NCBI GenBank assembly: GCA_023249975.1
Contig: JAHFBP010000001.1
Location: 69,870 to 133,869, forward strand
Origin: a bacterium
GTDB lineage: Bacteria; Babelota; Babeliae; Babelales; GCA-2401785
Direction of reading: 5' to 3'
DNA length: 64,000 nt
A model generated the notes under the pieces. It was not told the DNA's origin. It saw only the letters and a list, made by a program, of their open reading frames with translations, and searched no databases. A program made the translations under genes and the position numbers. Of this stretch, positions 11,814 to 62,180 are shown one piece after another. Within the stretch, counting starts at the first letter, position 1; every line of letters starts with the position of its first letter.

Positions 11814-12479
11814 TTATTTCCTCAATATTGATTTTATGGTGCGATAAATTCCATAACATACAATCACGGTGACTGTAGCTCCTGCTGCGCAAAATACTTT
11901 ATTTTTATGTTTTTCTAACTTTTCAATAGCATCTGGATGTTCAATAATCATTCTTGCTGCAATCAGTTCAACCCAACCCGGATCAAGCTGTTGCTTTGGT
12001 TGCTCAACGGGCACGGCAAGTACAGCCGGCTTAGCAACAGGCTGCGCCAACGCGGCAGCAAGCTTTTTCTTGTGATCAATAATTTGAGCGACTCGCTCCG
12101 ATGGCGTAAATTCTGGATATAATTGCAATGCTTTTTGATTTTCTTCTTCCGCGCGCTGAAATTGCTTGAGCTGTGCGCTCAGCAACGCGCAATCATGATA
12201 ATGCTCGGGAGTTTCTTCCTCAATGGAAATCAGCTGTGTGTAAGCTTGAGAAAAATCTTTACACAAACAAAGTTGGCATATCAAACGTTTTTTGGTTTCA
12301 ACATCCAGCTGGCTTTGCATATCACGGATTTGAATTAATTCTGAAACATCATATTGCTGGCAATCAATACTCAAAAAATCCTGTGGTAATCTCAATCGAG
12401 CAGCATGTGCCGAGACCATTGATACCATCAAACTTATAATTACTAAAATACTTCGATACTTAAACAATACGGTTTTCAT
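11814..12479 (-). CDS. Hypothetical secreted protein (221 aa) with N-terminal signal peptide and C-terminal hydrophobic helix
   Basis: MKTVLFKYRSILVIISLMVSMVSAHA signal-like N-terminus. Coiled-coil/TPR-like middle. C-terminal FCAAGATVTVIVCYGIY TM segment. Confidence 0.55.
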   Translation of the reverse strand: MKTVLFKYRSILVIISLMVSMVSAHAARLRLPQDFLSIDCQQYDVSELIQIRDMQSQLDVETKKRLICQLCLCKDFSQAYTQLISIEEETPEHYHDCALLSAQLKQFQRAEEENQKALQLYPEFTPSERVAQIIDHKKKLAAALAQPVAKPAVLAVPVEQPKQQLDPGWVELIAARMIIEHPDAIEKLEKHKNKVFCAAGATVTVIVCYGIYRTIKSILRK

Positions 12480-12604: not shown

Positions 12605-15600
12605 TTACGATGCATTCTTAAGCAAAGTAGCAAGGTGAGCCAAATCATCGGCGCTCATGCCACTGGTATCGCCTGAAGCTTCGGCAGCATTAGGATCAAC
12701 GGCAACAGCATTAGGATCAGCAACTGGGGCAGCTGCAACTGAAGTCGGCTCTTTCCATCCTTCTTTGAGTGCCTGTTGATATGGTGGAGCCACAAAAATA
12801 TTACGGTAATTAATAGGGGTATTCCAACTACTCAGACCCACATATTGCATACGACCAGGCGGATAAGGATCAGTCCATTCAAGAACCTTGTTAGTTCCCA
12901 AATCACCCTTACCCAAAGCAATCGTGCCATTATCCAAACTAATCCAATACTTTTGATATTCAATGGGCGTAATCATCGCATCAGGATGCTCTTCAGAAGT
13001 AAACTGCGCAACCGGGAAATCAAGACTTTGGACCCTTATGGCTGTTTTAGTATTGTCCCAACCACCAATAACTATCTCATAAATTTCATTTGATGAATTT
13101 CTTGTTTTGAATGGCGTTTGCCCAAAGCAAATGAAAATATCATTAATTGCTTTAGCTTCAAAAACGATTGACCCTTTTCCTGTTTCTTTAAGCTTATCGG
13201 TCAACCACACATATTCAGCATAATAAGGTCGCAATTCAACGCCAGCTCGTGCATTGTCTGCCAGCAAGGCGCGCGCCAATCCATTAATCCAGCTATACCA
13301 AACATCCTTGAGTTTTGCTTCATCAGGTTTATTCATATCAATCAAATATGCATTGTTTTGTGCTGAAATCAGCAAGTTTAAAAGGTCATTGTAAGGAGCA
13401 CGGGCTCCAGGCTGAGTTGGATCTGGATATAATTCTTTTTGAGCTTCATTTAAGCTCGCCAATGCATCGAATAGACTTTTTTTGACATATGGATTTTGAA
13501 CAACATATGGATGATTAATAAGATAAACAATCTGTTGATATAAGCTTACCAAACGCTCAAACTTGTCAGGAGTTGACGGTTTCCACTTGCTACCAAGCTC
13601 AATATTTGCATCAACTTTTGCTTTATTTTCAACAGCTTCTGGAGGGATGCTCGCTTCACCCAAATGCGCACCCATATATTTATCGGTATACACATAAGCC
13701 TGTGCATCACGGAAATTTTGCAATTTAGCCGACTGTGCAGCTGCACCAGCTCCCAGAGCCGCTCCTGCAGCACTAAACCCAAGACTTCCTATTGTTGCTA
13801 TCAAACCACCAATCTGAGTCTGTCCGCTCACTGACTGCCCAGAAGCATCCAAGGATTCTGATGTTGCTTTCATAATGTCTGCTGACTTTTGAAGTTCTAT
13901 TTTGCTTGGATTTTCAGGCTCAGTAACCCAATCCAACTGAGGAAACCCATCTGATTTAACTGTGATCATAAAATAATATTTTGCACGCTGTTGTGGCGTT
14001 GCCCCAGGATAATACGTTTTATTATTAACAATATCTTTAAATTTAACGGATGAACCCTCTTGTTCAATGTGATATTCATACGGCAAAATGATATACACTG
14101 CGCCTTTATACGCAAATTGAGCAAGTTCACGTTTATATGACTCAGAAACTGTGGCAATTTCAGGGCGAACAGGTGAGGCAACTTTAATATTCTTAAAGGA
14201 TGCTGACGTTCCACCAGTACCGCCAAACCCTATATATTTTAAAGTACTGATTGGCGAAATATCTTGAAGAAGAGTAAATGCACCTTCTCCCAACTTTCCC
14301 TCACCAATAATCAATTCACCAAAATAAAAGCTTGCCCAATAACTGCGCACACCACTGGGGTCAAGTGCAGCTTTTGGATATGATTTTGCCTTTAAAAATG
14401 CCATGTCCTTGTATCCGCCGCTGACATCTGAAGACATACGCTGAATTCTGAGGCCTTCATTTTCGCCATCCCCAAAAATAATAAGGTAACGATCACTCTT
14501 GCCATCTTTTTCAGCTGCTATAGCAAAAACCGCCTGCTTATTTCCTTTAACATCAAATGAAACTGCTCCGCGCCCTGGAACACGAAACGGCTTGTCATAC
14601 CAGGTCAAATTATCCAAAGATCCTGATGTATTCACTTCGGTCGTTCCTGCATCAAAAACTCGTTTTGCCGCCGTCATAACGACGGGCTTGCGCATTTGAA
14701 CTTCTGCATAAGTAACCGGTGTTTTATCGGTAGAAAAACCAACACGCCTGACCTGAGCTGGCGGGTTAGGATCACGCCACGACATAATGGTTCCTACGCC
14801 TGGCTGACTTCCCGCTCCAACTAAAATAAGTCCGTCATTAATACTCACCCAATAAGGAATAAAAACTCCTGGCGTAGTTGAAGCGGCTGGAGTCTCGTCA
14901 CGTGTAATTTCAAAAACAACTTCATCAACAGGAAGACCTTCCTCAAATCGTCTTTTAATAATTTGAGACTTGGTATTGTCATATGCACCTAGTCGAACTT
15001 TCCACACAAAGTCTATACCAACATCAAAACCAAAAACGACCTGAATGTCGCCCCTATCTTCCGCCTTTGCTCGAAATAAAATGGTAACCTTGCCAGGAGT
15101 ATCAAGAGATGTCCCCAACCAGGCAGCACCCTTGCTCAACAATGAATTAACGGTCAACATAAAACTTGAATCGAAGTTATCAATCTGATCTTTGGCAAAA
15201 CCCGACAATCGTGGTTTTTTTGCAGCACTCAACGTATCTGCAAAGTCTTGCGTTGCCTTGGGCGCAATTCCTCCACCCATCCCGAGTTTTACAATTTCGA
15301 TATTAACAAGCTCATTTGCCCCATCCTCCGCAGGTGAACCATAAGGCGCTCCTGTCCAGGCAACATCATCTTCGGGCATTGCCGATTCTATGGCATCAAA
15401 GACCCACCATAATCGACTTTTTTGATCGGATGTGAGAGCTTGCGCCACAGGTTCGGCAGGCGCAGTGGTCGCTGCTGTTTTTTGAGCAGCTTCTGCCTGA
15501 GCCGTGGCCTTTGCCTGTATAGCTTCAATCTGTACCGTTGTTGCATCTTTTTGCACAACTGCCTGAGCGCGAACAAGAGCCTCAGCCCCCATAACCTCAC

Positions 15601-16405
15601 TACTTGCTGAATATAATTCACACTTTGCGTCTACACTCACAAAAGTAACATTGCGCCCCCAAATCCACTGTCCACCACCTTCAACCAGTACTTGAAAGTT
15701 GTCTCCTCCATCACCAAGGCCATCTTTTCCATTTAAAGCTACGGCCAAGTTGGATGGTATTGAAGACGCGCGCCTTTGTTTGTCCATGTGGAGATTGCCA
15801 TTGTGTGCAGGATCTGCGCATTGCAAACGAATAATATCGCCATGCATAACAGGAGTCCCTGGGATGCAGTTCCATGGATCATCTTTGCGATGCGGGCCTT
15901 TGACTACCCAATACTCAGGAAGCTCTGCTGCAGCTGCTACCCCAGAAGAAGACTGAAGATTATATTCATAATGATCCCTTCTTACCTTTTCTTTGGTTGT
16001 TCTCATTTCTTGAATACCACTAGAATTATGAATGGATGTGAAATAGTGCTTATAGGTAACATCCTCTTCGGCTTCCTTAGATACAAGCTTTTTAGTAACT
16101 TTCAAATCAACGGCAGAAACTGTGCCCGCTGGGGCACGCAAGCCTTTACTCGATCCAAGGTTACAAATCTTGAGATAGTCGCCATAATTTATCGGTTTTT
16201 TGCGACTCAACAAACCATTCTTAAGAACTGATAGTTGTTCATCTGCAGGAACATCTTTTGCTTCATAATTCAACACCTTTCCCACGTCCTTATTCCCTGC
16301 GATGTCTTTACCTTCTGGGGTGAGTGCGGAGCCTGAAAAAATATTCAAAAAAAGAATGTATCCCCACATTTTACTCTGGTTTTTATTAATCATCATTTTT
16401 GTCAT
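12605..16405 (-). CDS. Giant secreted protein (1266 aa) with three FAMeT-like (Methyltransf_FA-like) beta-sandwich repeats. Paralog of the 17312-21835 protein.
   Basis: N-terminal signal peptide. Three modules match the motif pattern ...IGGWDNTKTAIR...YWISLDNGTIALGKG...VLEWTDPYPP...YVGLSSW. Pro/Ala-rich C-terminal tail. Extensive collinear similarity to the 1507-aa neighbour. Confidence 0.85.
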   Translation of the reverse strand: MTKMMINKNQSKMWGYILFLNIFSGSALTPEGKDIAGNKDVGKVLNYEAKDVPADEQLSVLKNGLLSRKKPINYGDYLKICNLGSSKGLRAPAGTVSAVDLKVTKKLVSKEAEEDVTYKHYFTSIHNSSGIQEMRTTKEKVRRDHYEYNLQSSSGVAAAAELPEYWVVKGPHRKDDPWNCIPGTPVMHGDIIRLQCADPAHNGNLHMDKQRRASSIPSNLAVALNGKDGLGDGGDNFQVLVEGGGQWIWGRNVTFVSVDAKCELYSASSEVMGAEALVRAQAVVQKDATTVQIEAIQAKATAQAEAAQKTAATTAPAEPVAQALTSDQKSRLWWVFDAIESAMPEDDVAWTGAPYGSPAEDGANELVNIEIVKLGMGGGIAPKATQDFADTLSAAKKPRLSGFAKDQIDNFDSSFMLTVNSLLSKGAAWLGTSLDTPGKVTILFRAKAEDRGDIQVVFGFDVGIDFVWKVRLGAYDNTKSQIIKRRFEEGLPVDEVVFEITRDETPAASTTPGVFIPYWVSINDGLILVGAGSQPGVGTIMSWRDPNPPAQVRRVGFSTDKTPVTYAEVQMRKPVVMTAAKRVFDAGTTEVNTSGSLDNLTWYDKPFRVPGRGAVSFDVKGNKQAVFAIAAEKDGKSDRYLIIFGDGENEGLRIQRMSSDVSGGYKDMAFLKAKSYPKAALDPSGVRSYWASFYFGELIIGEGKLGEGAFTLLQDISPISTLKYIGFGGTGGTSASFKNIKVASPVRPEIATVSESYKRELAQFAYKGAVYIILPYEYHIEQEGSSVKFKDIVNNKTYYPGATPQQRAKYYFMITVKSDGFPQLDWVTEPENPSKIELQKSADIMKATSESLDASGQSVSGQTQIGGLIATIGSLGFSAAGAALGAGAAAQSAKLQNFRDAQAYVYTDKYMGAHLGEASIPPEAVENKAKVDANIELGSKWKPSTPDKFERLVSLYQQIVYLINHPYVVQNPYVKKSLFDALASLNEAQKELYPDPTQPGARAPYNDLLNLLISAQNNAYLIDMNKPDEAKLKDVWYSWINGLARALLADNARAGVELRPYYAEYVWLTDKLKETGKGSIVFEAKAINDIFICFGQTPFKTRNSSNEIYEIVIGGWDNTKTAIRVQSLDFPVAQFTSEEHPDAMITPIEYQKYWISLDNGTIALGKGDLGTNKVLEWTDPYPPGRMQYVGLSSWNTPINYRNIFVAPPYQQALKEGWKEPTSVAAAPVADPNAVAVDPNAAEASGDTSGMSADDLAHLATLLKNAS

Positions 16406-16419
16406 CCTACATTCTCATC

Positions 16420-17190
16420 TTATTTTTTTGCATTTGAGTTCACAATAGGTACCCCGGGCACCACAACTTGTGGCGTAGTGGATGTTTTTGCCGCAATAAG
16501 AGGTACGCCTAGGCCAGCTGCATCTGTTTTTCTTGTAAACACCTGCCCACTTGCCGGTAAACAAGTCTCGGAGCCTCGTGGACTTAAAAATCCTGAAACG
16601 CGACTCTTGAGGTGGCAATTTACAATGCCATCACCTGTTATCTGCCAATGTCCCTGACTGTAGTCCTCATCTGTAATGGTCGGAAGCCTGAAAAGAATAG
16701 CGCGCGAATCATCCGTTGCGGCATATTTTCCATTGGCAACATTAGAATACACTCCAAGATAATCCGTCAAATCACGTGAAATATATCGTGAAACAACAAA
16801 ATGAGTAGCTTCGTCATCTGGATCGGTTGTATCGGCAACAATTCTGTACCCACCCATAACCTTACGAACCGCATAGTATCGCCCTGCCGTCCCATATTTT
16901 GGACGCAGTGATTTTATGCGAATAATAGTCCCCTCGGGCAATAAATCATGTACTGTTTTTTCCAAAGAAAATGATATGGGATATTCTGATTCATTCCGAA
17001 CTCGTTGCAAAAAACCCCAGCCATGTTCAGATATACTAGGAGCCGCACCAAGAGGATTGGCCGAACCTGTGGCCTTTTCAACCTCATGGCCTGCTGCCTT
17101 TTGTTCTGCTGTCTCAGCCTGCAGTGAATAATGAACGGTCCCGAATATTACACAACAACCGACTACGATTGTTAGTATCTTTCTTTTCAT
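16420..17190 (-). CDS. Secreted protein (approx. 257 aa) sharing an N-terminal domain with the 1507-aa giant protein
   Basis: Start MKRKILTIVVGCCVIFG (ATG 17188-17190). HGWGFLQRVRNESEYPISFS parallels NHGWGIIERIENNSDFPIVVSFS in the neighbouring giant protein. Confidence 0.7.
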   Translation of the reverse strand: MKRKILTIVVGCCVIFGTVHYSLQAETAEQKAAGHEVEKATGSANPLGAAPSISEHGWGFLQRVRNESEYPISFSLEKTVHDLLPEGTIIRIKSLRPKYGTAGRYYAVRKVMGGYRIVADTTDPDDEATHFVVSRYISRDLTDYLGVYSNVANGKYAATDDSRAILFRLPTITDEDYSQGHWQITGDGIVNCHLKSRVSGFLSPRGSETCLPASGQVFTRKTDAAGLGVPLIAAKTSTTPQVVVPGVPIVNSNAKK

Positions 17191-17311
17191 ATACATACCA
17201 TTCCTATAATCGTTTTTTGTGCCACCCAAATACACCCCCATTGTTTGTAACCCCATCCAGGGGGGCTAATGCAAGAGTTTTATCTATGGAGCAATCTATT
17301 TTGGATCACTG

Positions 17312-20300
17312 TCACTTTGGCATACCGTCTGATCCTTGCTCAGTAGCAGCAGCACCAGTAGCAGCTGGTGGTGGTGCTGGTGCTGTGGTTGGAGCTTGAG
17401 CTGACACACCTGTAGGAACAGCCGCTGGTGTTGGAGACTGTACGGTACTTGATTTCTTGATCACAGCAGGATCTTTTTTCTTGATAGCATCTGTCGCAAT
17501 TTTCTTAAGAGCCGCAGATACTGCTCCTGATTTGATTGCTTCCCGAGCTTTTGCAGTCGCTACTTTTTCTTGTTCATAAGCATCTTTAGACTCTTTTTTT
17601 GCATCTTTAAAAGCAGTCTTGAGAGCTGACTTCAGGCCGCCTTTTTCTTTAAAGAAAGCAATCTCCCCCTTAAGCATATGCTTATCTTGTTTTGCCAAAA
17701 AGGCTGCTCCTTGTGCATTCATAATACTTTGTCCTGCAGCACCCCCCTTAACCCGCTGTGCCGCACGAACAATTGGAGTAAAGCCAGTTTCAGCAACCTG
17801 TCGGGCAGCTTTTCGCTCAGCCAAAACTGGCGGTGGCCCAAAGGTATAGTCCCATCCCTCCAGTGTGAGTGGGTCATACGACAGTTCATCATATGCAAGC
17901 TCATCAAAATCTGTTTTTTTGGTGCTAAGAATATCTATTTTTTCAGCCTTTGAGTCCTGAGCAAGCTTGTCCGACTTGGTAATGTCCTCAAATGACAGTG
18001 CTAGAGTAGCTGCTTTTTCCTTTTCAAGAGCCGTCGCCGCGGTTTCTATCGCGCTCGGACCTTTTTGTTTTACTTCAACTAAATATGACAAATCAGTTTC
18101 ATTGGTAACGGGAGGTCCCACCTTGATGTTCGCAAATGTTACGGGAATTGCCCACGTACTAAAGCCTAAATATTGAGTTTTTATAGGGTACGGATCAACC
18201 CACTCCAAAACCTTACCCGTTCCCCATGGTCCATGACCAAGCTTGACCACCCCATCGTTAACGCTTACCCAAAATTTTTCAAGTACATTCGGTGTAAGCG
18301 CAGCATTAATATTATCATCGCTCGAAACCGTTGCGACGGAATGACCAAGGCTATAAGTTCTGATAAAGGTCTTTTGATTTGCCATTCCCCCAAATACGCA
18401 CTCGTAAAAGTCAACGTCCGTATTGCGCACATCCTGAGGTTGTGGAATAAGCCCCACAAAAATATCACTCAATCCACTCGCTTCAAAATACACAGATCCA
18501 CGTCCAGGTTGAGGCAGTTGAATATTTGAAAGCCAAATATATTCACCAAACAATGGCCGAACCGTCAAATCTTTACCTTTTTCAAATAACTCTTGGATCA
18601 ATTGCTGTATCCAGCCAGTCCAGAGGGTTTTTCGCTTGAGATCCATTTCATCACGACGATCCAATAGGTACGCATTTTCACGCGCTTCTACCAAAAGGGC
18701 CACTATCTGCTTTTTAAACATTTCTGGAGCAGCCCAGCGCGTTTCGGGTATTCCATACTGATCATATTTAAGGGGGGTATTTGCTGCATTTCGAGCTTCC
18801 ATATTTTTAACATGCTGGATACCTTGATCATAAACCTGCTTGATCATTCCAAAAAGTTTATTTTTCAGAGCCACTTTGTCTTGTGCTTGCCCAAGAATTA
18901 CCGGATGCGTAATAAGCATAATCGCTTGCTGAAGGATTGAAATATAATATTCGTAGTCACGCGCAATCCCCGGATTGAATTGTTCGAGCTTGTGCATTTT
19001 GTCATCAAACAAAGTCTTGTTGTCTTGAGCCTCCTGAGGAATAACGCCAGCCTTGCCACGCACAGATGTCTGTATTTTTTCCGTAAACACATAATTGTCA
19101 TGTGGTCGGTAACCAAAAGTATTGTTTGCCTCAAGAGTTGCAACTCCCACACTTCCCGCCACAAATGCCGAAGCTGATGCTATAGACGCTGCTGCATTAA
19201 CCGCAGAAAGTGCCATTCCAACAGGATCCCCATCCTGATACGGAACATTTCCTATTTCAGCAGCAGCACTGAGGGTCGTTCCAATAATGGTTCTTGCACC
19301 AAAAACAGCTAAGTTTTTCAAGAACACTTGTGCATTTTTCGGTTGACGCGACCAATCTCCAATCTCAGGAGTTCCATCTGGCTTGATAATCAAACGAAAG
19401 AAGTACGAGGCTGCTTGCTGTGGAGTTTTTCCTGGATACCATGTCTCTTGAGCTATTGCATCATAACACTCAATTTGCTGACCTTTTTGATCAAAATGAT
19501 ATGAAAAAGGAAATGCAACATTGATGACCCCTGCAAAATTATCACGCTGTTTAAATCCAGCAGCTACTTGCATACCCAATTGAACAGGCGACCCAATGCT
19601 CACATTTTGGATTTCACCCGTACTGGCATCGTTCAAGAAAAAACCTATTTTTTTCATTGAAGCCAACTGATCAATCCGGAGTATCGCCATTATCTTCTCA
19701 CCAGGCTCGCCATGCCCAATCACCATATAATCATAAAAAAGGCTCACCCAAAACTTTTTCCACTGATCTGGATCAAGCGCTTCCTGAATAAAAGCTACTG
19801 GAGTGGCTAGTACAGTTTCTTCGTACTCACCCTTTTCATTCATTTTCCATAGCGAAATGCCATCAAGATTATTGGCCCCGAAGGAAACTTGTATAACGGA
19901 TGCCTTATCCGCAGAAATCACGCCCTGAGAATCATCGCTTTTCAAGTTCAATACAACTTGCCCCTGACCTCGTGCCTCAAAGGTGACGCACCCTCGGCCA
20001 TCTTCACGCAAAGGCTTGTCGAGCCACAGCGGAGCATCCATTCCAACAGAAAGAACTCCCGGCTTTTCTATTGCTGTATAAACTTTGGATTGTTTTGTTG
20101 CTTTGATTGGGGGGCCAAGTTGAACTTCAACTATTTCAACATTTGTCTTAAAGTTTGAAAATCCAATGCGATCAACTTCGGCTGGTGGTGCAGGGTCTGC
20201 CCATGCAATAATAATATTTTCTCCAGGAATAGCCCCTGCGCCTGCAACAATCAATCCATTGTCAACACTTACCCAATAAGGCATATGCATGCCTGGCGGT

Positions 20301-21835
20301 ATTGCGGCAAGTGCGTTTTGTTCAACGGGAACCTCCGCTACAATGCAATCCCCCTTCATGATTACAGCCTTGGTATTATTAAACCCCCCAATAATTACTT
20401 TCCACACATATTGAGCAGGCGAAAGCTTGGTCGAACCAAATACTATTTGAAGATTTGCCGCATCTTCAACTTGTGCCCTAAACATAATAGAAGTACTCAT
20501 TGGTGTTGCCAAAGGAGTCTGAAGCCAGGCTGCCCCAAGATTCATAAGGCGACTCAGTTTTAAGCTTGTTTGATAATTGAAATTTTCAATGCGCTGTTGC
20601 GCAAAACCACTAATCACTGGTCGATCACGAACATATACTCGAAATGCTCCCGTTGGAGCATCAAATGGCAACATATTTTGAAGCGTATCTCGAAATGAAC
20701 CCTTGGCGCTCACCGTTAGTGCCGCAAGCCCTGCACTTGCTGCACCAAGCCCTCCAACCGCTAACGCAACCAGCCCGATGCTCTTTGCACTTGCAATCCC
20801 AGCTCCTCTATCGGCCGCACTTCGAGAAGCCTCTTTAGTGTCCCCATCGGCACTAATAGTTGCCATTTTTACACTTTGAGCATTGCGAGTAATCATTTTT
20901 TCTCTGAATTTTTGCTGAATTTTTTTTGCAGCTTCATCTTTTGTTACAGATGTAGCATTTTTTGCTTTTTCTATTGTTTCAGCCTTTTTTTCAGCAGCAA
21001 ACTTATCCTTCTTTTTTTCAGCAGCAGCCTTATCCTTGTTGTCCTGAACCTGCTTATCATAACCCTCCTTAATATGCTTATCTGCAAAACGCTGCAATAC
21101 ACTACCAGAAGTCTGTACCTTTACAGCTGCTTGCCGAGCCTCAAGCTCTACTTGAGTTCTTTTACTTTCATCAATTTGTTTCTTAATTTTTTTTGCTTCA
21201 TCTGAGTCTTGATCTTTATGCTCAAGCAACTTATTACTTAAATCGTTCTGTTTTTGCCTATGCTTATCAATACCTTTTTCATTAGCTCGATAATCAAGAG
21301 ACCGCGAAACTATTGCATCTTTTTCGGCAAATTGTTTTTTGAGCTTTTCATCATTTGGATTGTCTTCAAGTTGCTTTTTAAGCTCCCTGCGATTTTGTAT
21401 TTCTTTATCTAATTCATTGGGATTTTCTATCAATCCCTTACGCTCTTGTCCCACAATTTTTTTTACTGCCTTATTGGCTTGAGAGTTAAGGGCATACATA
21501 AGAGCCGCAGACCCCATCATCCCAAGGCTAGCCAAAAAGGTTTGTGCTTTTGCTGGCTCTGGATCTAATTGGATATTATCAGAATTTCCGCCATTGGCCC
21601 CAATTCGATAATCTTTGTTGGAAAAAGAAACTACTATAGGAAAATCAGAATTATTTTCTATGCGTTCGATAATCCCCCAGCCATGATTAGCTTTGGCAAA
21701 AAAATCCTGATTAACTTGATCACTTGCCTCTTGCATGTCCTGATCGGTAAGCGGAAAGCACTCATGAAGTGTATTGCCACAAAGAATAATTGTTAAAAAT
21801 ATGGCAATTTTTTTTCGATAGCCATTGTCATACAT
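17312..21835 (-). CDS. Giant secreted protein (1507 aa): K/E-rich coiled-coil N-region followed by three FAMeT-like repeats. Paralog of 12605-16405.
   Basis: Signal peptide MYDNGYRKKIAIFLTIILCGN. Long KEKKDK charged region. Modules with VWKVIIGGFNNTKAVI, PYWVSVDNGLIVAGAG and VLEWVDPYP. Pro/Ala-rich C-terminus. Confidence 0.85.
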   Translation of the reverse strand: MYDNGYRKKIAIFLTIILCGNTLHECFPLTDQDMQEASDQVNQDFFAKANHGWGIIERIENNSDFPIVVSFSNKDYRIGANGGNSDNIQLDPEPAKAQTFLASLGMMGSAALMYALNSQANKAVKKIVGQERKGLIENPNELDKEIQNRRELKKQLEDNPNDEKLKKQFAEKDAIVSRSLDYRANEKGIDKHRQKQNDLSNKLLEHKDQDSDEAKKIKKQIDESKRTQVELEARQAAVKVQTSGSVLQRFADKHIKEGYDKQVQDNKDKAAAEKKKDKFAAEKKAETIEKAKNATSVTKDEAAKKIQQKFREKMITRNAQSVKMATISADGDTKEASRSAADRGAGIASAKSIGLVALAVGGLGAASAGLAALTVSAKGSFRDTLQNMLPFDAPTGAFRVYVRDRPVISGFAQQRIENFNYQTSLKLSRLMNLGAAWLQTPLATPMSTSIMFRAQVEDAANLQIVFGSTKLSPAQYVWKVIIGGFNNTKAVIMKGDCIVAEVPVEQNALAAIPPGMHMPYWVSVDNGLIVAGAGAIPGENIIIAWADPAPPAEVDRIGFSNFKTNVEIVEVQLGPPIKATKQSKVYTAIEKPGVLSVGMDAPLWLDKPLREDGRGCVTFEARGQGQVVLNLKSDDSQGVISADKASVIQVSFGANNLDGISLWKMNEKGEYEETVLATPVAFIQEALDPDQWKKFWVSLFYDYMVIGHGEPGEKIMAILRIDQLASMKKIGFFLNDASTGEIQNVSIGSPVQLGMQVAAGFKQRDNFAGVINVAFPFSYHFDQKGQQIECYDAIAQETWYPGKTPQQAASYFFRLIIKPDGTPEIGDWSRQPKNAQVFLKNLAVFGARTIIGTTLSAAAEIGNVPYQDGDPVGMALSAVNAAASIASASAFVAGSVGVATLEANNTFGYRPHDNYVFTEKIQTSVRGKAGVIPQEAQDNKTLFDDKMHKLEQFNPGIARDYEYYISILQQAIMLITHPVILGQAQDKVALKNKLFGMIKQVYDQGIQHVKNMEARNAANTPLKYDQYGIPETRWAAPEMFKKQIVALLVEARENAYLLDRRDEMDLKRKTLWTGWIQQLIQELFEKGKDLTVRPLFGEYIWLSNIQLPQPGRGSVYFEASGLSDIFVGLIPQPQDVRNTDVDFYECVFGGMANQKTFIRTYSLGHSVATVSSDDNINAALTPNVLEKFWVSVNDGVVKLGHGPWGTGKVLEWVDPYPIKTQYLGFSTWAIPVTFANIKVGPPVTNETDLSYLVEVKQKGPSAIETAATALEKEKAATLALSFEDITKSDKLAQDSKAEKIDILSTKKTDFDELAYDELSYDPLTLEGWDYTFGPPPVLAERKAARQVAETGFTPIVRAAQRVKGGAAGQSIMNAQGAAFLAKQDKHMLKGEIAFFKEKGGLKSALKTAFKDAKKESKDAYEQEKVATAKAREAIKSGAVSAALKKIATDAIKKKDPAVIKKSSTVQSPTPAAVPTGVSAQAPTTAPAPPPAATGAAATEQGSDGMPK

Positions 21836-21930: not shown

Positions 21931-21965
21931 AAAAGCAAAAAGGCCCAGTCTATGATGACTGGGCC
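21931..21965 (-). terminator. Rho-independent terminator downstream of the OMP gene
   Basis: Hairpin GGCCCAGTC...GACTGGGCC with a flanking A-run on plus (U-run on the minus transcript), ~90 bp past the stop of the 22055-22753 gene. Confidence 0.6.
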
Positions 21966-22054
21966 TTTTAAATTCTACAAAAACTTTATTTCAAAGTTCT
22001 CGCGAAAAATAGTTATCACGCACAGCGCAATACTACCTAGCTAGTGGTGTCGAA

Positions 22055-22753
22055 TTAGAACGAAAAACCAACAGTAGCTGAAACACTAGGTGCCTTGAAA
22101 GCTGAATAGCCTTTGGCAAGTGAATCTGATTCTGCTGCAACTTTAAGGTTTACAGGATAGCTTTCGCTGTTAACTTTGTAACCAACTGATGCTTCTACTT
22201 TGTGAGTAAATTTATCATCTTGAACGTTTTTATATCCAAGGTTGTAACCAGTCTTAACTGTAAATCCTGACATTCCATATTTTACGCCAGTTGAGTATTT
22301 AGCATGATGAACTGAAGAAGCGTCAGCAGATTTTGGTTGGAAAGCGTAGTTAGCATCTGCCACTACTGAGAAATCACCATAGGTTGTTTCTGCAACTGTG
22401 TAGCTACCATCAACACCAAGACCAAGTTTATAGCAATTGCGATCAACTGCAGCTTTGGCATATGCGCCAACTACAGCTGAATCATTTAAGTCAAAATCAT
22501 GTCCAACAACAAGATCACCTTTTGAAAGGCCCCTTTTGTTCAAACCATCAACTGAAACAGTTGTACGACCGTAAACTTCTTGTCCGTACACATCAGCAGA
22601 AACTTCAGCACCAAGACGTTGTGTGAAAGCTTTTGATGCATATGAAGTTGTTGTATCAAGAGCAATGCGGTTAGTCAAAGCAGCTTGAGCATTTGAACCA
22701 AAAAATCCAAGTGACAAGAAAGCTAGTGAAAGAAGTGAATTTGTATTTTTCAT
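22055..22753 (-). CDS. Outer-membrane beta-barrel protein (porin/OmpA-like family, about 230 aa)
   Basis: Signal peptide MKNTNSLLSLAFLSLGFFGSNAQA. Alternating amphipathic beta-strand pattern rich in Y/G/S/T. C-terminal Phe (…ATVGFSF). Confidence 0.75.
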   Translation of the reverse strand: MKNTNSLLSLAFLSLGFFGSNAQAALTNRIALDTTTSYASKAFTQRLGAEVSADVYGQEVYGRTTVSVDGLNKRGLSKGDLVVGHDFDLNDSAVVGAYAKAAVDRNCYKLGLGVDGSYTVAETTYGDFSVVADANYAFQPKSADASSVHHAKYSTGVKYGMSGFTVKTGYNLGYKNVQDDKFTHKVEASVGYKVNSESYPVNLKVAAESDSLAKGYSAFKAPSVSATVGFSF

Positions 22754-22943
22754 GGGAAAACTTCCAAATAAGAATAAAAGAACAAGCACCACTACATGCT
22801 AGGACACTACGGGCAAATCGTACCGCACTCCGCCAGAAAAGTCAAAGTGTAAAAAAGTTGATTTTTCCTTGATACAAAGGGCTTTTTTGCTGTTTTTTGC
22901 CACCTTATCCCACCGTAAGTATTTCTATATGGATAATAATTAT

Positions 22944-24926: not shown

Positions 24927-26009
24927 TTAATCTAAATAGATCCTTGATCTCAAAGGACGTCCTGCACGCCGATCAGCTGCAATGTCTTGCTCAATTTGCT
25001 CAGCATACTTTGACATTAAGTCATGATATTCTACAGCCTCACAATCCTTGAGATATTCTGCATCTGCAACAAACGCATCACAAGCTCTTAAAAATTGAGA
25101 ACTTTCTCCAGCTTCATCATACGAAATTGCTCGACGTTGCTTGGCATGATCCCGTTCAGCTTCATCACAAGCTCTTATAAGCTCTAAATCTTCTTCAGAA
25201 ATAACCAGATTTTGCACGGGATCAGCAACTCCAAATGCTATGGCTAAACTTCTTTTTCGACTCTGCCAATCTAAATGGGATTGTCCCATTTCTGCCTGAT
25301 TACAATACTTTATGTCTGCAAAATCACGTATCTCAGCAATATACAGATTCACTAAATCTTCAATAGCTCGCCTTACTGGTATATACGCTAAATCATGCCC
25401 AATATGGGCATCAGTCACCCTAAGTGCAAGATCTCTAAAACATTCCAATTTACTCAAACAATAGGTTGGATTGTCTTTACGATTATGAATATCAATGTTT
25501 TCATAATTTTCGCAAGCTGCAGCACGAGTCCAATTGAATGACCCAGAAATAACTTCATCATCAACAATCACCATCTTGTGATGAATCATTTTTTCTTTTT
25601 TGGCGCTTTTAATCAAATAAACACGATCAGGATATCTGTGCACAAGCTCCTTAAGGTCAAGAATTGCATTGTTAAGAGTAAGGCGACCCTTTGGAGTTGA
25701 AGCTTTATCATAAATAACAACAACTTTTAGATTTTGATTGTGACGCACAGCATCTACAATTGCACGAGTAAAATGATTATCGGTCAACATATACATCGCA
25801 ACAAAAATAACATTTTTTGCGCCAGCAAGCTTTTCACAAATAAACTCGCGAATATCATGCTCAGGGGTATGCATTGTTCGTGGGGAACTAGAAAAAAAGC
25901 TTTCTCGTGGTGGAGTCTGAAAACCAACTGCCGGAGGTAACACAGGCTGAACTGTTGTTGAGACTAGTATCGAAAAAAGTAAGGCTAGGCTTTTTATGGT
26001 GGAATTCAT
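24927..26009 (-). CDS. Secreted phospholipase D/nuclease-superfamily protein with a single HKD motif and a ~180-aa C-terminal extension
   Basis: Signal peptide MNSTIKSLALLFSILVSTTVQP. HHKMVIVDD...GSFNWT matches HxK(x4)D(x6)GSxN. Confidence 0.7.
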   Translation of the reverse strand: MNSTIKSLALLFSILVSTTVQPVLPPAVGFQTPPRESFFSSSPRTMHTPEHDIREFICEKLAGAKNVIFVAMYMLTDNHFTRAIVDAVRHNQNLKVVVIYDKASTPKGRLTLNNAILDLKELVHRYPDRVYLIKSAKKEKMIHHKMVIVDDEVISGSFNWTRAAACENYENIDIHNRKDNPTYCLSKLECFRDLALRVTDAHIGHDLAYIPVRRAIEDLVNLYIAEIRDFADIKYCNQAEMGQSHLDWQSRKRSLAIAFGVADPVQNLVISEEDLELIRACDEAERDHAKQRRAISYDEAGESSQFLRACDAFVADAEYLKDCEAVEYHDLMSKYAEQIEQDIAADRRAGRPLRSRIYLD

Positions 26010-26240
26010 ATACAATTTCTTCAAGATACGAATAAAAATAATCAAATTTCATGATGAGTAAAAATAATAAAACAAAACAGGCAAATAGGCTTTTTTTTTT
26101 ACAAAAGGCCACTTTTTATCATTTTTATGCGCACCAACCTTCACGGCATTACAACATGGCTATACTTGAAACACTGGACATGTTAGAATATTTCACATAG
26201 TACACAAAACAACAGGGGAACAATATTAATGAAGGATGTT

Positions 26241-26793: not shown

Positions 26794-27879
26794 TCAACTT
26801 TTAATCATTGCAACATACGCCAAATTACGTGATCGCGCCCAAGCGGTCAAAAAACTATCCAGAGGGCATCTTCGTAAGGTGTCCTCATTTTTTTTGTGAT
26901 CCGAATCAATCAACACGACCTCTTTTGTTGTATTGTCCCACCCAATCACCAACACAAAATGGCCCTTGGTATATGGCTTGGTTCCACTGGCAATTTCTCC
27001 GCGCACACTCACCGGCACAGGGATTCCTTTGTGTAAATAGTGATATAAATCTTTGAATGAATTAAGACGCTCAACTCGGACATTCACCTTGCCATCCAGC
27101 TCATGGTATGCCTGCGCAACATTAAACAACCAGTTTCCATAGATATGCAACGCCCCATTGTCATACACCTTTTCTGCAAATCGAACCACGCCCTGGTCAA
27201 GAGCGATATCATTTTTTTTGCCTAATGTGCGCTTGAGATACCTTACCAAAAGCATTGTGGCAGTTGGTGAACAAAATGCAGGACAACGGTGATGTTTTAA
27301 CAAATGCTGCGACTGCAGCTCAATGTCCCGAAGAAGGATTGATGATTTGTTAAAATGATTCTTTTTGCGAAACAATGCGTCAGTCGAAGTGGCTGCGCAC
27401 AATTGGTTTACACAATTTAATTGCGCGCCATCCTCTGCGCAAACCTCAAACTTCAATCCCGTAGCTTTATGCTTTTTCTGAACATCAAATCGAACATATT
27501 GAGCATAAGCCTTAGATTTTTTTTTGCCGAAGCCGAATGATCGCTGTTCATCCAGTGCCCATGTCGCAAACTTTTGCAATGGCGACCAAGTGCCATCAAC
27601 TAACAAACTTCCCTTAAATGAAAGCTGTCCGACTAAAGGGCGGCGTGCGTTCCATGAAAAAATGCATTCAGTAAAGGGATCACATTTGGTGCACTCCCAC
27701 AACAGGGTCTTTGTATGATTTTTATTATGATTTTTATGGGGATGATAAATGTAGGTCTTGGAAAATTGATGTGAATTTAAAGGCGCAGCGCCCAAGGTTA
27801 TTAATAAAGACAGAAAAAGACTCTTACTTGCCCACGCAAAATTTTTGAAACACAAGATCAAGTGTTTTTTCTGAGACAT
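26794..27879 (-). CDS. Secreted papain-like cysteine peptidase, C39-like domain
   Basis: Catalytic-Cys region HRCPAFCSPTATMLLVRYL resembles CGPTSLAMVLNYL of C39-like peptidases. His motif GHFVLVIGWD follows. N-terminal hydrophobic signal. The 5' end overlaps the mnmE 3' end. Confidence 0.55.
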   Translation of the reverse strand: MSQKKHLILCFKNFAWASKSLFLSLLITLGAAPLNSHQFSKTYIYHPHKNHNKNHTKTLLWECTKCDPFTECIFSWNARRPLVGQLSFKGSLLVDGTWSPLQKFATWALDEQRSFGFGKKKSKAYAQYVRFDVQKKHKATGLKFEVCAEDGAQLNCVNQLCAATSTDALFRKKNHFNKSSILLRDIELQSQHLLKHHRCPAFCSPTATMLLVRYLKRTLGKKNDIALDQGVVRFAEKVYDNGALHIYGNWLFNVAQAYHELDGKVNVRVERLNSFKDLYHYLHKGIPVPVSVRGEIASGTKPYTKGHFVLVIGWDNTTKEVVLIDSDHKKNEDTLRRCPLDSFLTAWARSRNLAYVAMIKS

Positions 27880-29206
27880 GTTTACCTGCAAGTTGTGACA
27901 ACTGAATCAGCATATCCTTTGCAGTATACGCAACCAGCTCATATTGCCCACCCTGCTGTGTAAGATTTTGAATATCATGAATCTTACGTATCAAAGTTTC
28001 AATGGTTGCACGATGCCGCTCATTCAATAAATAAGGCGTTGCTCCAACTTGAGTGCAATGTGTGATCTTAGATTCGATCAACGAAATAAGCTCTTCAATT
28101 CCACGCTCTTGTAGAGCAGAAACTTTATGGACTGACTCAAAAATATCATCTTGAGCTTTTATGACACCCTCACACTTGGATGCCACCACAATAATCTTGT
28201 CGCCATATTGTGCGCTAATTTCTTGATAGCGTTCACGTTCCTGGTCAGACATAACTCGTGACGCATCAAAAACCAAAACGACCACATCTGCCTTGGCCGC
28301 TTCTTCATGCGTCCGAAGAATGCCTTCTTGTTCAATGACTTCGTCCGTTTTGCGCAAGCCGGCCGTATCGACAACTGTCCACAAAATTCCATTGACTGAA
28401 AGCCCTGCTTCAATAGTATCGCGTGTGGTACCTGCCTGAGGGCTTACAATCGCACGTTTTTTGCCGATCACGGCATTAAACAATGTCGATTTTCCCACAT
28501 TAACTGTACCGACAAGAACAATACGCACACCTTCACGCACATGTTGTTGCCCTGCAAAACCATGATGTAATTTTTTTATTTTTGAATAGACAAGTTCAAT
28601 CTGATCCAAAATTCTTTGCCCATGCCCAAAATCAACCTGCTCTTCTTCCAAGAACTCAAAGCTCACTTCAGACAATACCACCAAAAACTCAAGATCATTT
28701 TGCAATTGAGCAAACTGAGCGGACAAACTTCCTTCAACCTGACCTAGTGCCTTTTCAACTGCAGCTTCAGATTGAGCGGCAATCAACTCGGCGATTGACT
28801 CGGCTTGGACAAGGTCAATTTTACCATTTATCACAGCCTGACGAGTGAATTCACCGCGTTGCGCAATGCGTGCACCAGCTTTGACTAATGACTGAATGGT
28901 TCGATCGATTAAAAGATTATTGTTGTGTCCAGTGATCTCAACGGTGTCATATCCCGTGAATGTGCGAGGAGCTCTCATGAGCATGAAAAGCACTTCGTCG
29001 ACTTTAACATGTCCATCCATCACAAAACCATGATGAATGGTATGGCTGACGGCATCAACCAGTTTCTTTTTTGAAGTGAGCAAGGCGCATGTATCGGCTA
29101 TCTCAACAGCGCCTGGCCCCGAAATTCGTATCATAGACAGCGCGCCCGATCCACGTGGCGTACACAAAGCAACCACGGCCTCATGATTAAGCGACACCGA
29201 CTTCAT
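27824..29206 (-). CDS. mnmE: tRNA modification GTPase MnmE (TrmE)
   Basis: 460 aa. G-domain motifs GTVNVGKSTLFNA and DTAGLR. C-terminal FCVGK matches the MnmE C(I/V)GK tail. Confidence 0.93.
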   Translation of the reverse strand: MKSVSLNHEAVVALCTPRGSGALSMIRISGPGAVEIADTCALLTSKKKLVDAVSHTIHHGFVMDGHVKVDEVLFMLMRAPRTFTGYDTVEITGHNNNLLIDRTIQSLVKAGARIAQRGEFTRQAVINGKIDLVQAESIAELIAAQSEAAVEKALGQVEGSLSAQFAQLQNDLEFLVVLSEVSFEFLEEEQVDFGHGQRILDQIELVYSKIKKLHHGFAGQQHVREGVRIVLVGTVNVGKSTLFNAVIGKKRAIVSPQAGTTRDTIEAGLSVNGILWTVVDTAGLRKTDEVIEQEGILRTHEEAAKADVVVLVFDASRVMSDQERERYQEISAQYGDKIIVVASKCEGVIKAQDDIFESVHKVSALQERGIEELISLIESKITHCTQVGATPYLLNERHRATIETLIRKIHDIQNLTQQGGQYELVAYTAKDMLIQLSQLAGKHVSEKTLDLVFQKFCVGK

Positions 29207-43869: not shown

Positions 43870-43903
43870 AAAAGCAAGGGGAGAATTATTGCGGGGGAAT
43901 CTT

Positions 43904-45466
43904 ATGAAAGTTCATTTACACAGACAATTATTTATTATTTGTGCGGTAATCAGCACCATCTCTTGTGTCATTTTTCCAAAAGACGATACCCTCAAAGCTC
44001 AAGTTGGCATTATCTCAGACCAAGCTGATCGTCGGGCTGGAAGAAAGCATCCGCACACCAATGCGGCCCCAATTGTTCAGCAAGACCCTGTTGAACAAAA
44101 GCAAATTGTTGCCCAAAAAGACTGGACTATTTTTTTGTATATTCAGGCTCGCAACAACCTTGCTCCATTTGCCATCAGAAACCTTAAAGAAATTACCGAT
44201 GTTGGGCCTGGCGAAAAAGTTAACGTGGTCGTTCAATGGGAACAACCGCACCAGAAGGGCGTTTGGCGTTATATCATAGAAAAAGACCGCATTGTATTGC
44301 TCGAGAGCGATGAGACTGATCATAATATTGACCCGGCCAAAAGATTGGTTGATTTTATAGCCTGGGGCGCTAAGCGCTATCCGTCCAAAAAAACTGCCGT
44401 CATTTTGTGGAATCATGGGATTGGAGCTCTTGATCCAACGTGGGGCAACCCAATGCGGTTCCTTGTATTTGGTGATGGCAAACACAACCCACGCCTTGAT
44501 ATTGAAGGCGTTACCTACACAAGCTCTAATATAGAGCAAGAAGAGTCCGAAGAGGGTAACTCCTATCAAACACAGCAATCCCGCTCAGCGAAAGCTGCAA
44601 AGGACAGATCTGACCTGTCTGAAAACGAGCACAGGGGATTGCTCTTTGATGAGCTCTACAAAATTTATATGACCAATAAAGACCTGGGGCGTGCCTTGCG
44701 CGGCATTTATGCTGTTTTAGGAAAAAAAATAGACGTTCTTGGAATGGATACCTGTTTCTCGCAAATGATGGAGCCTGCCTATCTAGCCAAAGACTTTGCG
44801 CATTATTATGTAGCATCTCAGGACATCGAACTGGCAAGAGGTTGGCCCTATGACGAAATTATGAAAGCACTCCAAAACGACCTGTCTCCACGCCAACTGG
44901 CCGAAACCATCGTACAAAAATACGAACAACTTTATCGCGGAAAAACACATCTTTTTACGCTTTCAGCAATTGATTTGAGTAAAATTATGCCCCTCAAACA
45001 AAATATTGACTCAGTTGCACAACACCTCATTGCAGCCATGAGTGCTGAGCGTGGTCCTGTTACATCACTCATCAGACGGTCACGCAAGGAAACGCTTGAA
45101 TTTTCAACACCTCTTTATGTTGACCTCCATTCATTCTATCTCGAACTTTCTAATAATATTTCTGCAGCATTTCAAAACCGGATGGGCCAGGGTCTTTTCC
45201 CTTCCTTGGCTCATCGCTATCCAAATCGCATCATAAGTAGCATCAGCAGAACGCCACTTTCAGAAAATCTTCTCAGGGAAGTTCAAAGCGGCATCAATTT
45301 GATCAATCAAGCCGTATTTGCAAAAACATCCAGCCAACGATTGGGTCGATCTCAAGGAATTTCGATCTATTTCCCTCAATATGGACTCGACGATTCATAT
45401 ATCAACAATGAATTTGCTCAACAATCGACATGGACCCAACTCATTAATGTTATGCTTCAATCCTAA
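43904..45466 (+). CDS. Secreted clostripain-like cysteine peptidase (MEROPS C11 family)
   Basis: Signal peptide MKVHLHRQLFIICAVISTISC. Catalytic dyad motifs ILWNHGIGA (His-Gly) and LGMDTCFSQMME (Cys). Paralog of 62181-63458. Confidence 0.7.
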   Translation: MKVHLHRQLFIICAVISTISCVIFPKDDTLKAQVGIISDQADRRAGRKHPHTNAAPIVQQDPVEQKQIVAQKDWTIFLYIQARNNLAPFAIRNLKEITDVGPGEKVNVVVQWEQPHQKGVWRYIIEKDRIVLLESDETDHNIDPAKRLVDFIAWGAKRYPSKKTAVILWNHGIGALDPTWGNPMRFLVFGDGKHNPRLDIEGVTYTSSNIEQEESEEGNSYQTQQSRSAKAAKDRSDLSENEHRGLLFDELYKIYMTNKDLGRALRGIYAVLGKKIDVLGMDTCFSQMMEPAYLAKDFAHYYVASQDIELARGWPYDEIMKALQNDLSPRQLAETIVQKYEQLYRGKTHLFTLSAIDLSKIMPLKQNIDSVAQHLIAAMSAERGPVTSLIRRSRKETLEFSTPLYVDLHSFYLELSNNISAAFQNRMGQGLFPSLAHRYPNRIISSISRTPLSENLLREVQSGINLINQAVFAKTSSQRLGRSQGISIYFPQYGLDDSYINNEFAQQSTWTQLINVMLQS

Positions 45467-48190: not shown

Positions 48191-48640
48191 GGGGGTGTAC
48201 CGGCTTTCGACGTGTCGTTGTGTATCCTTGGTGCGTGTCGAGTTTGATTGTGGCTCGTAAAAAAACGATCAGCACAATAAGTGCAAACACAACAATGGCC
48301 CTTGTGGCCTGTGCTTCTGCAGCTCTTGTAGCTGCAGCTACAGCTTTTGTTGCTCCTGTTGCCGCTGCTTTTGCAGTTGCCTTCAGCAACGACACTGTAG
48401 TAGCTTAACCGCTGAACACCTTGTAAGCAGGTGTGTCTATTCACCCAGCTTACTCGTATTATAATAATAGAACTTGCCAGGTAGATTTCCTCTTTGGGTA
48501 ACCTGGTTTGTATCAACCAAAAGGGCAGAGTGGGTTTTGGGGCTTCTTGCATTCCTTCTCTGAACCTCAAGAAGACACACACGTAGTACCTCTGATATAA
48601 AGCGGGGCGGACATGGGTTCGACTCCCATCACCTCCACCA
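48191..48640 (+). ncRNA. ssrA: tmRNA (ssrA), about 450 nt, with a long Ala/Val-rich tag reading frame
   Basis: 5' end GGGGGTGTACCGGCTTTCGACG. 3' end is a T-arm (ATGGGTTCGACTCCCAT) + CACCTCC + A + CCA pairing with the 5' GGGGGTG, including a G3·U wobble (alanine identity). Candidate resume codon GCA at 48283 is preceded by AAAAAACGATCAGCACAATAAGU, as in E. coli. Tag frame runs to TAA at 48406-48408. Confidence 0.8.
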
Positions 48641-60965: not shown

Positions 60966-61300
60966 TACGGTAAGCCCTTTGATTGGGTGAATATTAAAAC
61001 AACCTGGCTTGAATAATTAGGCAACCTGGTCGAAGAACACTGAATAGCAAGGCTTGCTGAAAACCATGCTAGATATTTCTTGAATATACCTGAACGTGAA
61101 AAAAAAGAAAGGTCCATTTTGTTCAAAACCTTACAATCTTGAAATCCTAGGGTCTTTGGTTTGAAAAAGGGTTTAGCTTATTATTATTATTTCATAAATA
61201 CTTTTTAAGTATGATAATGATAGATGAAAGTACTTTCTGTTCATAACTCAACAAAAATAACGCCAAACAAGGCTCCAGGAGCCAGTTACAAAGAGACTTC

Positions 61301-61506: not shown

Positions 61507-61517
61507 CCCTGATAGAA

Positions 61518-62099: not shown

Positions 62100-62180
62100 A
62101 GGTGTGCCTTTTTTATGTGTGAATCATGAGTTGCTTAACATTAGGCAACAGGTATTTATATCAGTTTAGCCGGAAGATTG

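Follow-up and report, generated by a model that had tools for sequence, protein, structure and literature searches.

A Dependentiae protein family with a fixed core of three PF12248 modules: candidate exported glycan-recognition proteins

Introduction

Arthropod proteins known as farnesoic acid O-methyltransferases (FAMeT) carry one to four copies of the Pfam domain PF12248 (Methyltransf_FA), usually followed by DUF3421/DM9, and their biochemical function is unresolved (PMC10015273). The same domain has been described from CPAMD8, a secreted protein (PMC9363628), and from a protein of the shell matrix (PMC6003135). Here we analyzed a bacterial window, the whole 64,000-nucleotide stretch of contig JAHFBP010000001.1 under study, in which three adjacent genes encode two giant proteins with three PF12248 copies each, hereafter called G2 and G1, and between them a small, probably exported protein, S.

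The source bacterium is an uncultured member of the Dependentiae (TM6/Babeliales-like), as the named homologs all belong to Candidatus Dependentiae, Babeliales or TM6. This widespread phylum of protist parasites has almost no cultured members, and its ways of recognizing and entering hosts are unknown. We found that G1 and G2 belong to a family in which variable lectin-type N-terminal modules precede a fixed core of two FA (PF12248) modules, a mid-module and a third FA module. The individual domains are not new, and PF12248 is already assigned to these proteins by automated Pfam annotation; new are the fixed core with its unannotated mid-module, the combination of this core with MIR, Tectonin and S modules, and the conserved, probable operon. 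By analogy with known folds, we tentatively read the proteins as Sec-exported, membrane-associated glycan-recognition proteins that may act in host recognition or attachment, a reading to which we give slightly less than even weight.

Results

The three genes lie on the minus strand, as do all their parts described below, and they were found where the initial annotation had placed them: G2 at 17312-21835 (1507 aa), S at 16420-17256 (278 aa) and G1 at 12605-16405 (1266 aa). The open reading frame (ORF) of S reaches 17256, or 17190 with an alternative ATG start, which is the probable one and gives 256 aa; for G1 the probable start is Met4, in agreement with an identical database entry, P0001, that comes from an ENA metagenome contig. 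The S stop codon and the G1 start are separated by 14 nt, and a strong terminator-like hairpin with a 13-bp stem, located 3' of the upstream gene, lies just upstream of G2 (21938-21969; a consensus match only, and terminator-like sites in general are no more numerous than in shuffled sequence). The hairpin would mark G2 as the first gene, and together with the short S-G1 gap it suggests that G2-S-G1 is one transcription unit.

The N-termini of G1, G2, S and their orthologs are signal-peptide-like, judged by eye from a charged n-region and a hydrophobic h-region, and this is clearer in the orthologs. In G2 the segment comprises residues 1-29 (21749-21835), where inspection and hydropathy point to RKK followed by IAIFLTIILCG. 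The N-terminal part of G2 continues with an S-domain remnant, a hydrophobic segment, a K/E-rich region and another hydrophobic segment, and the rest consists of FA1, FA2, the mid-module, FA3 and a 260-aa Ala/Lys/Pro-rich tail. G1 is built of a putative signal peptide, a MIR-like β-trefoil, an Ala/Gln-rich linker, FA1, FA2, the mid-module, FA3 and a Pro/Ala tail. The Pro/Ala-rich C-terminal tails ascribed to both giants were borne out by their composition: that of G1 (residues 1207-1266; 12608-12787) contains 24% A and 10% P and has low confidence in the structural model, and the C-terminal extension of G2 (residues 1245-1507; 17315-18103) is Ala/Lys-rich with a Pro/Ala/Thr-rich end and has no Pfam match. 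These tails are not kept between orthologs. The charged low-complexity region of G2 (residues ~120-343; 20807-21478; K 19%, A 12%, E 10%, D 9%) had been described as ~350 aa long, but the K/E/D/A-rich sequence actually spans ~225 aa (residues ~120-345).

As had been expected, the Pfam scan found PF12248 exactly three times in each giant, and the motif series given for the modules by the initial annotation is visible in the sequences. When the proteins were scanned whole, the domain scored 153.8 bits (E 3.2e-45) in G1 and 106.1 bits (E 1.6e-30) in G2. Scans of separate pieces gave Pfam extents of ~465-566, 610-739 and 1063-1202 in G1 and of 434-567, 608-732 and 1099-1236 in G2, and five modules out of six exceeded the Pfam gathering score of 24.2 bits alone: G1 FA1 (residues ~416-590; 14636-15160) with 32.7 bits, G1 FA2 (residues ~609-745; 14171-14581) with 38.5 bits, G1 FA3 (residues ~1056-1206; 12788-13240) with 94.9 bits (E 4.7e-27), G2 FA1 (residues 434-567; 20135-20536) with 37.7 bits (E 2e-9) and G2 FA3 (residues 1099-1236; 18128-18541) with 61.3 bits (E 1e-16). 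G1 FA3 is the best Pfam match of all modules and covers positions 3-136 of the 140 in the hidden Markov model (HMM). The exception is G2 FA2 (residues 608-732; 19640-20014), a degenerate copy of 18.1 bits that aligns collinearly with G1 FA2.

The initial annotation had spoken of three paralogous proteins, and this holds for the two giants: residues 397-1208 of G1 and 405-1242 of G2, a core of ~840 aa, are collinear by BLAST with 32% identity (E 5e-140). Non-equivalent modules also match each other, such as G1 FA1 and G2 FA3 (BLAST E 6e-14), and the triplication of the FA module is thus real and predates the split of G1 and G2. S, in contrast, is no paralog of the core. It gave no BLAST match at all to G1, and a weak one to residues 2-108 of G2 (23% identity, E 2e-6). 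Big or cadherin repeats, the other identity considered for the modules at the outset, occur in neither giant, and Pfam found no classical adhesin repeat (Big, cadherin-like, SdrD, Calx-β) in G1, G2 or S; an NCBIfam scan of the three proteins gave no matches.

To describe the fold of the core, we used an AlphaFold2 model of G1 residues 390-1266 made from 21 aligned sequences (predicted local distance difference test, pLDDT, 74.5; predicted TM-score, pTM, 0.65). In this model FA1 and FA2 are confident β-sandwiches (pLDDT ~85) and FA3 forms a third β-sandwich. Foldseek searches against the PDB matched FA1-FA2 first to galectin-8 (E 3.7e-11), then to the Toxascaris tandem galectin, galectin-9 and the adenovirus fibre galectin domain, followed by the LG domains of laminin, neurexin and Gas6 and by glycoside-hydrolase β-sandwich domains. 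Among the viral models of BFVD, LamG/ConA-like phage receptor-binding proteins were matched. At the sequence level, no PDB entry related to the FA or mid-module regions was found, and the giants did not match Pfam Gal-bind_lectin at E ≤ 1-5. The lectin-like β-sandwich for which the initial annotation had proposed a structural search was therefore recovered, with tandem-repeat galectins and LamG domains as the best PDB matches, and the FA module is predicted to be a galectin/LamG-type jelly-roll β-sandwich and not a methyltransferase fold. Only the name of PF12248 would suggest that the giants are genuine farnesoic-acid-type O-methyltransferases. We regard this as hardly credible: the predicted fold is a β-sandwich and not a Rossmann-type fold binding S-adenosylmethionine (SAM), no methyltransferase (SAM-binding) family was otherwise matched in Pfam or NCBIfam, and the proteins are giants that are probably exported. 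Even for FAMeT itself the activity was never reliably shown, and fly mutants have normal hormone levels (PMC10015273).

The core order is the same in both giants, namely FA1, FA2, a small β unit, a Gly/Ala-rich hydrophobic segment, a helical bundle and FA3. After FA2, the G1 model shows a small four-strand β unit (residues ~778-828; 13922-14074; pLDDT ~50-65), a long helix, a poorly modelled stretch with the Gly/Ala/Ser-rich segment (residues ~865-890; 13736-13813) and a confident helical bundle (residues ~916-1052; 13250-13660). The β unit contains invariant columns and the motif T(Y/F)YPGxTPQQ, which varies least in the whole family, and the helical bundle, when modelled separately, resembles generic helical proteins only. 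In G2 the mid-module (β unit, hydrophobic segment 3 and helical bundle) occupies residues 750-1096 (18548-19588; match to profile A2 with E 2.6e-104, P0027). The mid-module corresponds to no Pfam family.

In front of the core, members of the family have one of several interchangeable modules: a MIR β-trefoil as in G1, a Tectonin β-propeller, or the S-domain. A profile of the orthologous G1-type N-termini (in G1 residues ~70-270, with an insertion; 15596-16198) matches the SDF2-like protein 3mal at E 1e-10 and also 1t9f and RyR1, and Pfam MIR (PF02815) is matched by four of nine orthologs (best E 6e-7). G1 alone stays below the Pfam threshold for MIR, its sequence being divergent, and its membership comes from the alignment. 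On this profile evidence, the N-terminal region of G1-type proteins is a predicted MIR β-trefoil.

The S-domain of S (about 16552-17031) follows the putative signal peptide. In P0015, P0017-19 and P0021 it is fused to the FA core (E 1e-30 to 2e-41); across the family it is found either fused to a giant or in the gene directly upstream, the latter being the case in the window. G2 itself has a remnant of the start of the S-domain at residues ~45-95 (NHGWGIIERIENNSDFPIVVSFS; 21551-21703; blastp/tblastn E 2e-6, 54% identity over 22 aa). No relatives of the S-domain were found in Pfam or the PDB, except for one stray RicinB_lectin_2 match with E 0.025. We also considered the S-domain as a β-trefoil, which was unsupported (hhalign against the MIR profile, probability 0.2%). 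Tectonin (PF19193) is fused to the FA core or encoded beside it in 11 of 28 surveyed relatives and in four further loci (L001, L010, L011 and L012). It is not present in the window, where S lacks the Tectonin part, either lost or never there.

How far the family extends was examined by an exhaustive profile search with the mid-module and clustering at 50%, which gave 134 representatives, 79 of them at E ≤ 1e-30; nearly all are 900-2400 aa long and match the full module. In a survey of 28 diverse members, PF12248 was found in 27 and Hyd_WA in 2, and every other domain match apart from Tectonin stems from a single protein, P0131. This 3492-aa Calx-β/Big/SdrD/Amidase_3 giant from an ENA contig of 168 kb was rejected as a member, since its match to the mid-module profile consists of 15 copies of a 23-residue stretch, that is, of short repeats only. 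A protein of this kind could mislead automated family surveys. Beyond the identical entry, 20 further homologs of G1 were found, the named ones being Candidatus Dependentiae or Babeliales, and additional representatives that bear names are Dependentiae as well. A word-indexed homolog search with the FA3 profile, aimed at PF12248 relatives outside Dependentiae, gave a single 249-aa match. A pattern-based scan of species-representative genomes found only seven loci, which says nothing on absence from Babela or Chromulinavorax; the loci are labelled Dependentiae, Babeliales or TM6, except for short, probably mis-binned contigs. As far as names exist, the family is restricted to the Dependentiae lineage.

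The arrangement of the genes is also conserved. In a 557-kb JGI contig (L001), the G1 ortholog (~50% identity) adjoins RsmE, TsaB, RuvX and PolA as in the window, and the gene 29 nt upstream of it encodes a putative signal peptide, an S-domain (58% identity to S) and Tectonin. In L010, L011 and L012 an S-Tectonin gene is followed after a gap of 13-16 nt by a G1 ortholog and RsmE. Across these four loci the G1 orthologs beside RsmE show 46-50% identity and the upstream S-domains 50-58% identity to S. L012 further encodes an upstream giant of 1449 aa that aligns with G2 residues 49-1325 (29% identity, E 3e-158), and since this is a full-length G2 ortholog, the whole trio is conserved in at least one other genome; the syntenic trio sought elsewhere is thus present as G2-S-G1-RsmE. 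The fusions of the S-domain with the core and the conserved adjacency give good evidence that S would work together with the giants. Tandem arrays of two or three giants on one strand occur in L004 (1-12911), L005 and L008, some with S and MIR fused before the core, and these arrays in other Dependentiae contigs indicate that local duplication recurs in the family. Between the window and L001, identity is 58% for the S-domain, 52% for SecF, 51% for ComM, 49% for G1, 45% for PolA, 37% for TsaB and 35% for RsmE. These figures put G1 and S level with their housekeeping neighbors in conservation and show both to be under strong purifying selection.

The hydrophobic segment of the core is kept in place and character throughout the family. 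It was detected by a crude scan in 74 of 107 representatives, with G+A+S of 53-68%, Kyte-Doolittle hydropathy (KD) of 1.4-2.1 and uncharged runs with a median of 29 residues. In G1 it has KD 1.58-1.69, G+A+S of 63% and a Hessa sum over 19 residues of +2.65 kcal/mol, a crude, position-independent estimate that ranges from +2 to +3.6 kcal/mol in G1-type proteins and is ~+1 in Tectonin-type ones. In G2 the corresponding segment 3 was located by hydropathy at residues 882-901 (19133-19192). The Tectonin-type proteins P0017-P0020 have ~150 aa of extra Ala/Gln/Lys-rich helical sequence around the segment, which is more hydrophobic in them (KD ~2.1). G2-type proteins have two additional conserved hydrophobic segments, which flank the Lys-rich region and are more hydrophobic than the core segment. 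Segment 1 (residues 100-116; 21488-21538; KD 1.60) corresponds to residues 78-101 of the L012 ortholog (KD 1.97), and the Gly/Ala-rich segment 2 (residues 344-375; 20711-20806; KD 1.88-1.98) to its residues 361-382. By membrane-span criteria, the hydrophobic segments have KD 1.5-2.1 and uncharged runs of at least 19 residues, but Hessa sums of +1 to +3.6 kcal/mol.

With every segment spanning the inner membrane, the topology of G1 and G2 would be shared: the lectin modules, FA1 and FA2 would lie outside, and the bundle, FA3 and tail inside. With spans formed by the two extra segments of G2 alone, no FA module would be cytoplasmic, and G2 would be anchored and G1 soluble. We had also treated the segments as non-spans, on the ground that G1 and G2 would have opposite topologies, and dropped this argument, as the conserved G2 segment 100-116 restores the same orientation.

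The shared topology would fit an inner-membrane-anchored core component of the envelope, whose periplasmic lectin-type modules (S, MIR, Tectonin, FA1 and FA2) would bind the bacterium's own glycans, e.g. peptidoglycan, and whose bundle, FA3 and tail would be cytoplasmic, making it a trans-membrane scaffold or sensor without direct host contact. We think this rather unlikely, yet several features agree with it. Conservation is equal to that of the housekeeping neighbors, and the place beside RsmE/TsaB/RuvX/PolA is fixed. Most members have a segment of at least 19 uncharged residues, the C-terminal flank of the G1 segment is the more positive one (-1 before, +2 after), and G2-type proteins have exactly two extra segments, which gives their core the same orientation as in G1 (charge bias +4/-1 at segment 2 of the L012 ortholog). 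In Chromulinavorax destructans, moreover, a peptidoglycan pathway is present and the periplasm contains dense material (PMC6561590). On the other hand, the Hessa sums make the core segment marginally hydrophobic, it would be unusual for three homologous β-sandwiches to lie partly in the periplasm and partly in the cytoplasm, and the typical setting of galectin/LamG, MIR and Tectonin folds is extracellular or lumenal. Tandem paralog arrays with swapping of N-terminal modules are more typical of host-interaction families. The sole fusion with a peptidoglycan amidase, once considered as evidence for a periplasmic place, was rejected since it belongs to the false positive P0131, a non-member.

The core segment also resembles a viral fusion peptide, that of HIV-1 gp41, in composition (G+A+S 53-68%) and hydrophobicity. 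With the same computation the HIV-1 gp41 fusion peptide gives a Hessa sum of +2.2, against +2.0 to +3.6 kcal/mol for the Gly/Ala/Ser-rich segment. A long helix flanks this segment, and the helical bundle comes after it. The proteins might then be membrane-attacking entry or escape factors, in which the lectin modules would dock on the food-vacuole membrane and the Gly/Ala-rich segment and the bundle would insert into it and breach or remodel it; C. destructans passes from the food vacuole to the cytoplasm within 3 h by an unknown mechanism (PMC6561590). The conserved core would in that case be a new type of bacterial host-membrane entry machine that lets Dependentiae escape into the protist cytoplasm, and, as a corollary, the animal 'FAMeT' domain would be a glycan- or ligand-binding module and no enzyme. 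We consider this improbable, as the likeness is one of analogy alone and the segment has pLDDT below 50 in the model.

The window is otherwise an ordinary chromosomal stretch of a reduced-genome bacterium with GC ~41%. The G2-S-G1 cluster adjoins housekeeping genes, and the window as a whole encodes GroEL, Rho, SecF, PolA, RuvX, TsaB, RsmE, ComM, MnmE, GatB, LeuRS, IF-2 and NusA as well as tRNA-Gly and a transfer-messenger RNA (tmRNA). Directly upstream of G2, a 245-aa ORF (22055-22792, minus strand) with a signal-peptide-like start, alternating β-strand-like sequence, a C-terminal Phe and no Pfam match looks like a small outer-membrane β-barrel protein. Between G1 and RsmE lies a 221-aa ORF (11814-12479, minus strand) without a Pfam match, which has a putative signal peptide at its N-terminus and a hydrophobic segment at its C-terminus. 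As the RsmE ORF in its long, TTG-start form overlaps this ORF, the RsmE start is probably further downstream. In L001, L010, L011 and L012, no counterpart of the 221-aa ORF is called in the interval from the G1 ortholog to RsmE.

Four genes encode putative exported hydrolases (24927-26045 and 26794-27891 on the minus strand, 43889-45466 on the plus strand, 62181-63458 on the minus strand), namely a PLD-like protein whose N-terminus is signal-peptide-like, a C39-like peptidase and two peptidases of the clostripain (C11) type. C11 is listed among the secreted peptidases of C. destructans (PMC6561590), and a C11 peptidase gene lies directly upstream of the G2-type giant in L012. The tmRNA gene (48191-48640, plus strand) has an unusually long, hydrophobic predicted tag of 24 aa, AATAFVAPVAAAFAVAFSNDTVVA. 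Near the end of the window (~60000-64000), GC skew, negative across the window up to there, turns positive in the last 2 kb (+0.089). The cumulative skew has its minimum near 62 kb, up to which most genes are on the minus strand, and this turn may mark the origin or terminus of replication or else a strand switch.

Discussion

The reading that we tentatively favor is that of exported glycan-recognition proteins working at the host interface. In this scheme Sec would carry the proteins across the inner membrane, the lectin-type modules would bind carbohydrate-bearing ligands, most likely glycoconjugates of the protist host surface or of the food-vacuole membrane, and the hydrophobic segment or segments, together with the helical bundle, would hold the protein in a membrane or insert it there. 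G2, with its two extra segments around the Lys-rich loop, would be the anchored paralog, with G1 and S as its partners. The genomes of TM6 bacteria encode Sec and type II secretion components (PMC4776705), and in C. destructans 44% of the coding sequences carry signal peptides; this species is ingested, and while still in the food vacuole, prior to its arrival in the cytoplasm, it sheds outer-membrane vesicles (PMC6561590). The 'adhesin/effector' role suggested by the initial annotation is drawn in the same way from the domain types and the parasite lifestyle and may be held with the same reserve. Its remark that the architecture is not characterised functionally agrees with what we found: the named homologs are all called 'hypothetical protein', and our literature search found no paper connecting Dependentiae with PF12248 or Tectonin.

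Several points weigh against a role at the host surface. The function is deduced from analogies of fold and domain content, with 8-13% sequence identity to galectins and LamG domains. G1 and S lie in housekeeping surroundings and are as conserved as PolA, ComM and SecF, a pattern no less expected of a core envelope function than of a host-facing adhesin, and one that speaks against a fast-evolving effector. The segments and their flanking charges would fit an inner-membrane topology with FA3 cytoplasmic and the lectin modules periplasmic, away from the host. Pfam and NCBIfam found no secretion or outer-membrane-targeting domain (autotransporter, RTX/T1SS, T9SS C-terminal) in the giants, and the signal peptides were judged by eye only.

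The family is among the few large, conserved, phylum-specific protein families of Dependentiae, and it is often tandem and built almost entirely of glycan-recognition-type folds; for these reasons it is a concrete candidate for host-recognition or envelope machinery, and one that could be tested in the three cultured species (Babela, Vermiphilus and Chromulinavorax), provided that they encode a homolog. It also bears on an old puzzle of arthropod endocrinology, since methyltransferase activity of the 'FAMeT' domain has never been demonstrated. The galectin/LamG-like predicted fold and the company of lectin modules, as with DM9 in arthropods, support a binding role for this domain.

The closest known systems share some features with the Dependentiae proteins and differ in others. 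CPAMD8, the oyster protein MFCP and the abalone shell protein UP5 likewise place PF12248 in secreted, recognition-type proteins, but in unrelated surrounding architectures (α2-macroglobulin/thioester domains). An oyster PF12248 protein is reportedly microbe-binding, to go by the title of Li et al. 2021 (cited in PMC9358689). With MIR proteins (SDF2/SDF2-like proteins, protein O-mannosyltransferases, and the N-terminal β-trefoils of RyR/IP3R) the G1-type N-terminus is homologous at the profile level, whereas G1 is too divergent for a Pfam MIR match, has an insertion and belongs to a bacterial, probably exported context. Tectonin/tachylectin-type β-propeller lectins are represented by the Tectonin that accompanies the FA core in relatives and is absent from the window. 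Tandem-repeat galectins (galectin-8, galectin-9 and that of Toxascaris) have two tandem jelly rolls that correspond to FA1-FA2 in the predicted model (Foldseek E 4e-11 to 3e-9), although identity is 10-13%, Pfam gives no galectin match, and the many domains of the query keep the TM-scores low. Arthropod FAMeT shares the same Pfam domain, to which G1 FA3 aligns over nearly the full HMM, and the same principle of tandem domains joined to another lectin-type module. The giants, which have no Pfam match to DUF3421/DM9, do not fit the FAMeT architecture of two PF12248 copies alone or with DUF3421/DM9 in a small protein. While FAMeT is small, the Dependentiae proteins are probably exported giants of 1200-2400 aa without DM9, built on a fixed FA-FA-mid-module-FA core with hydrophobic segments and MIR, Tectonin or S modules.

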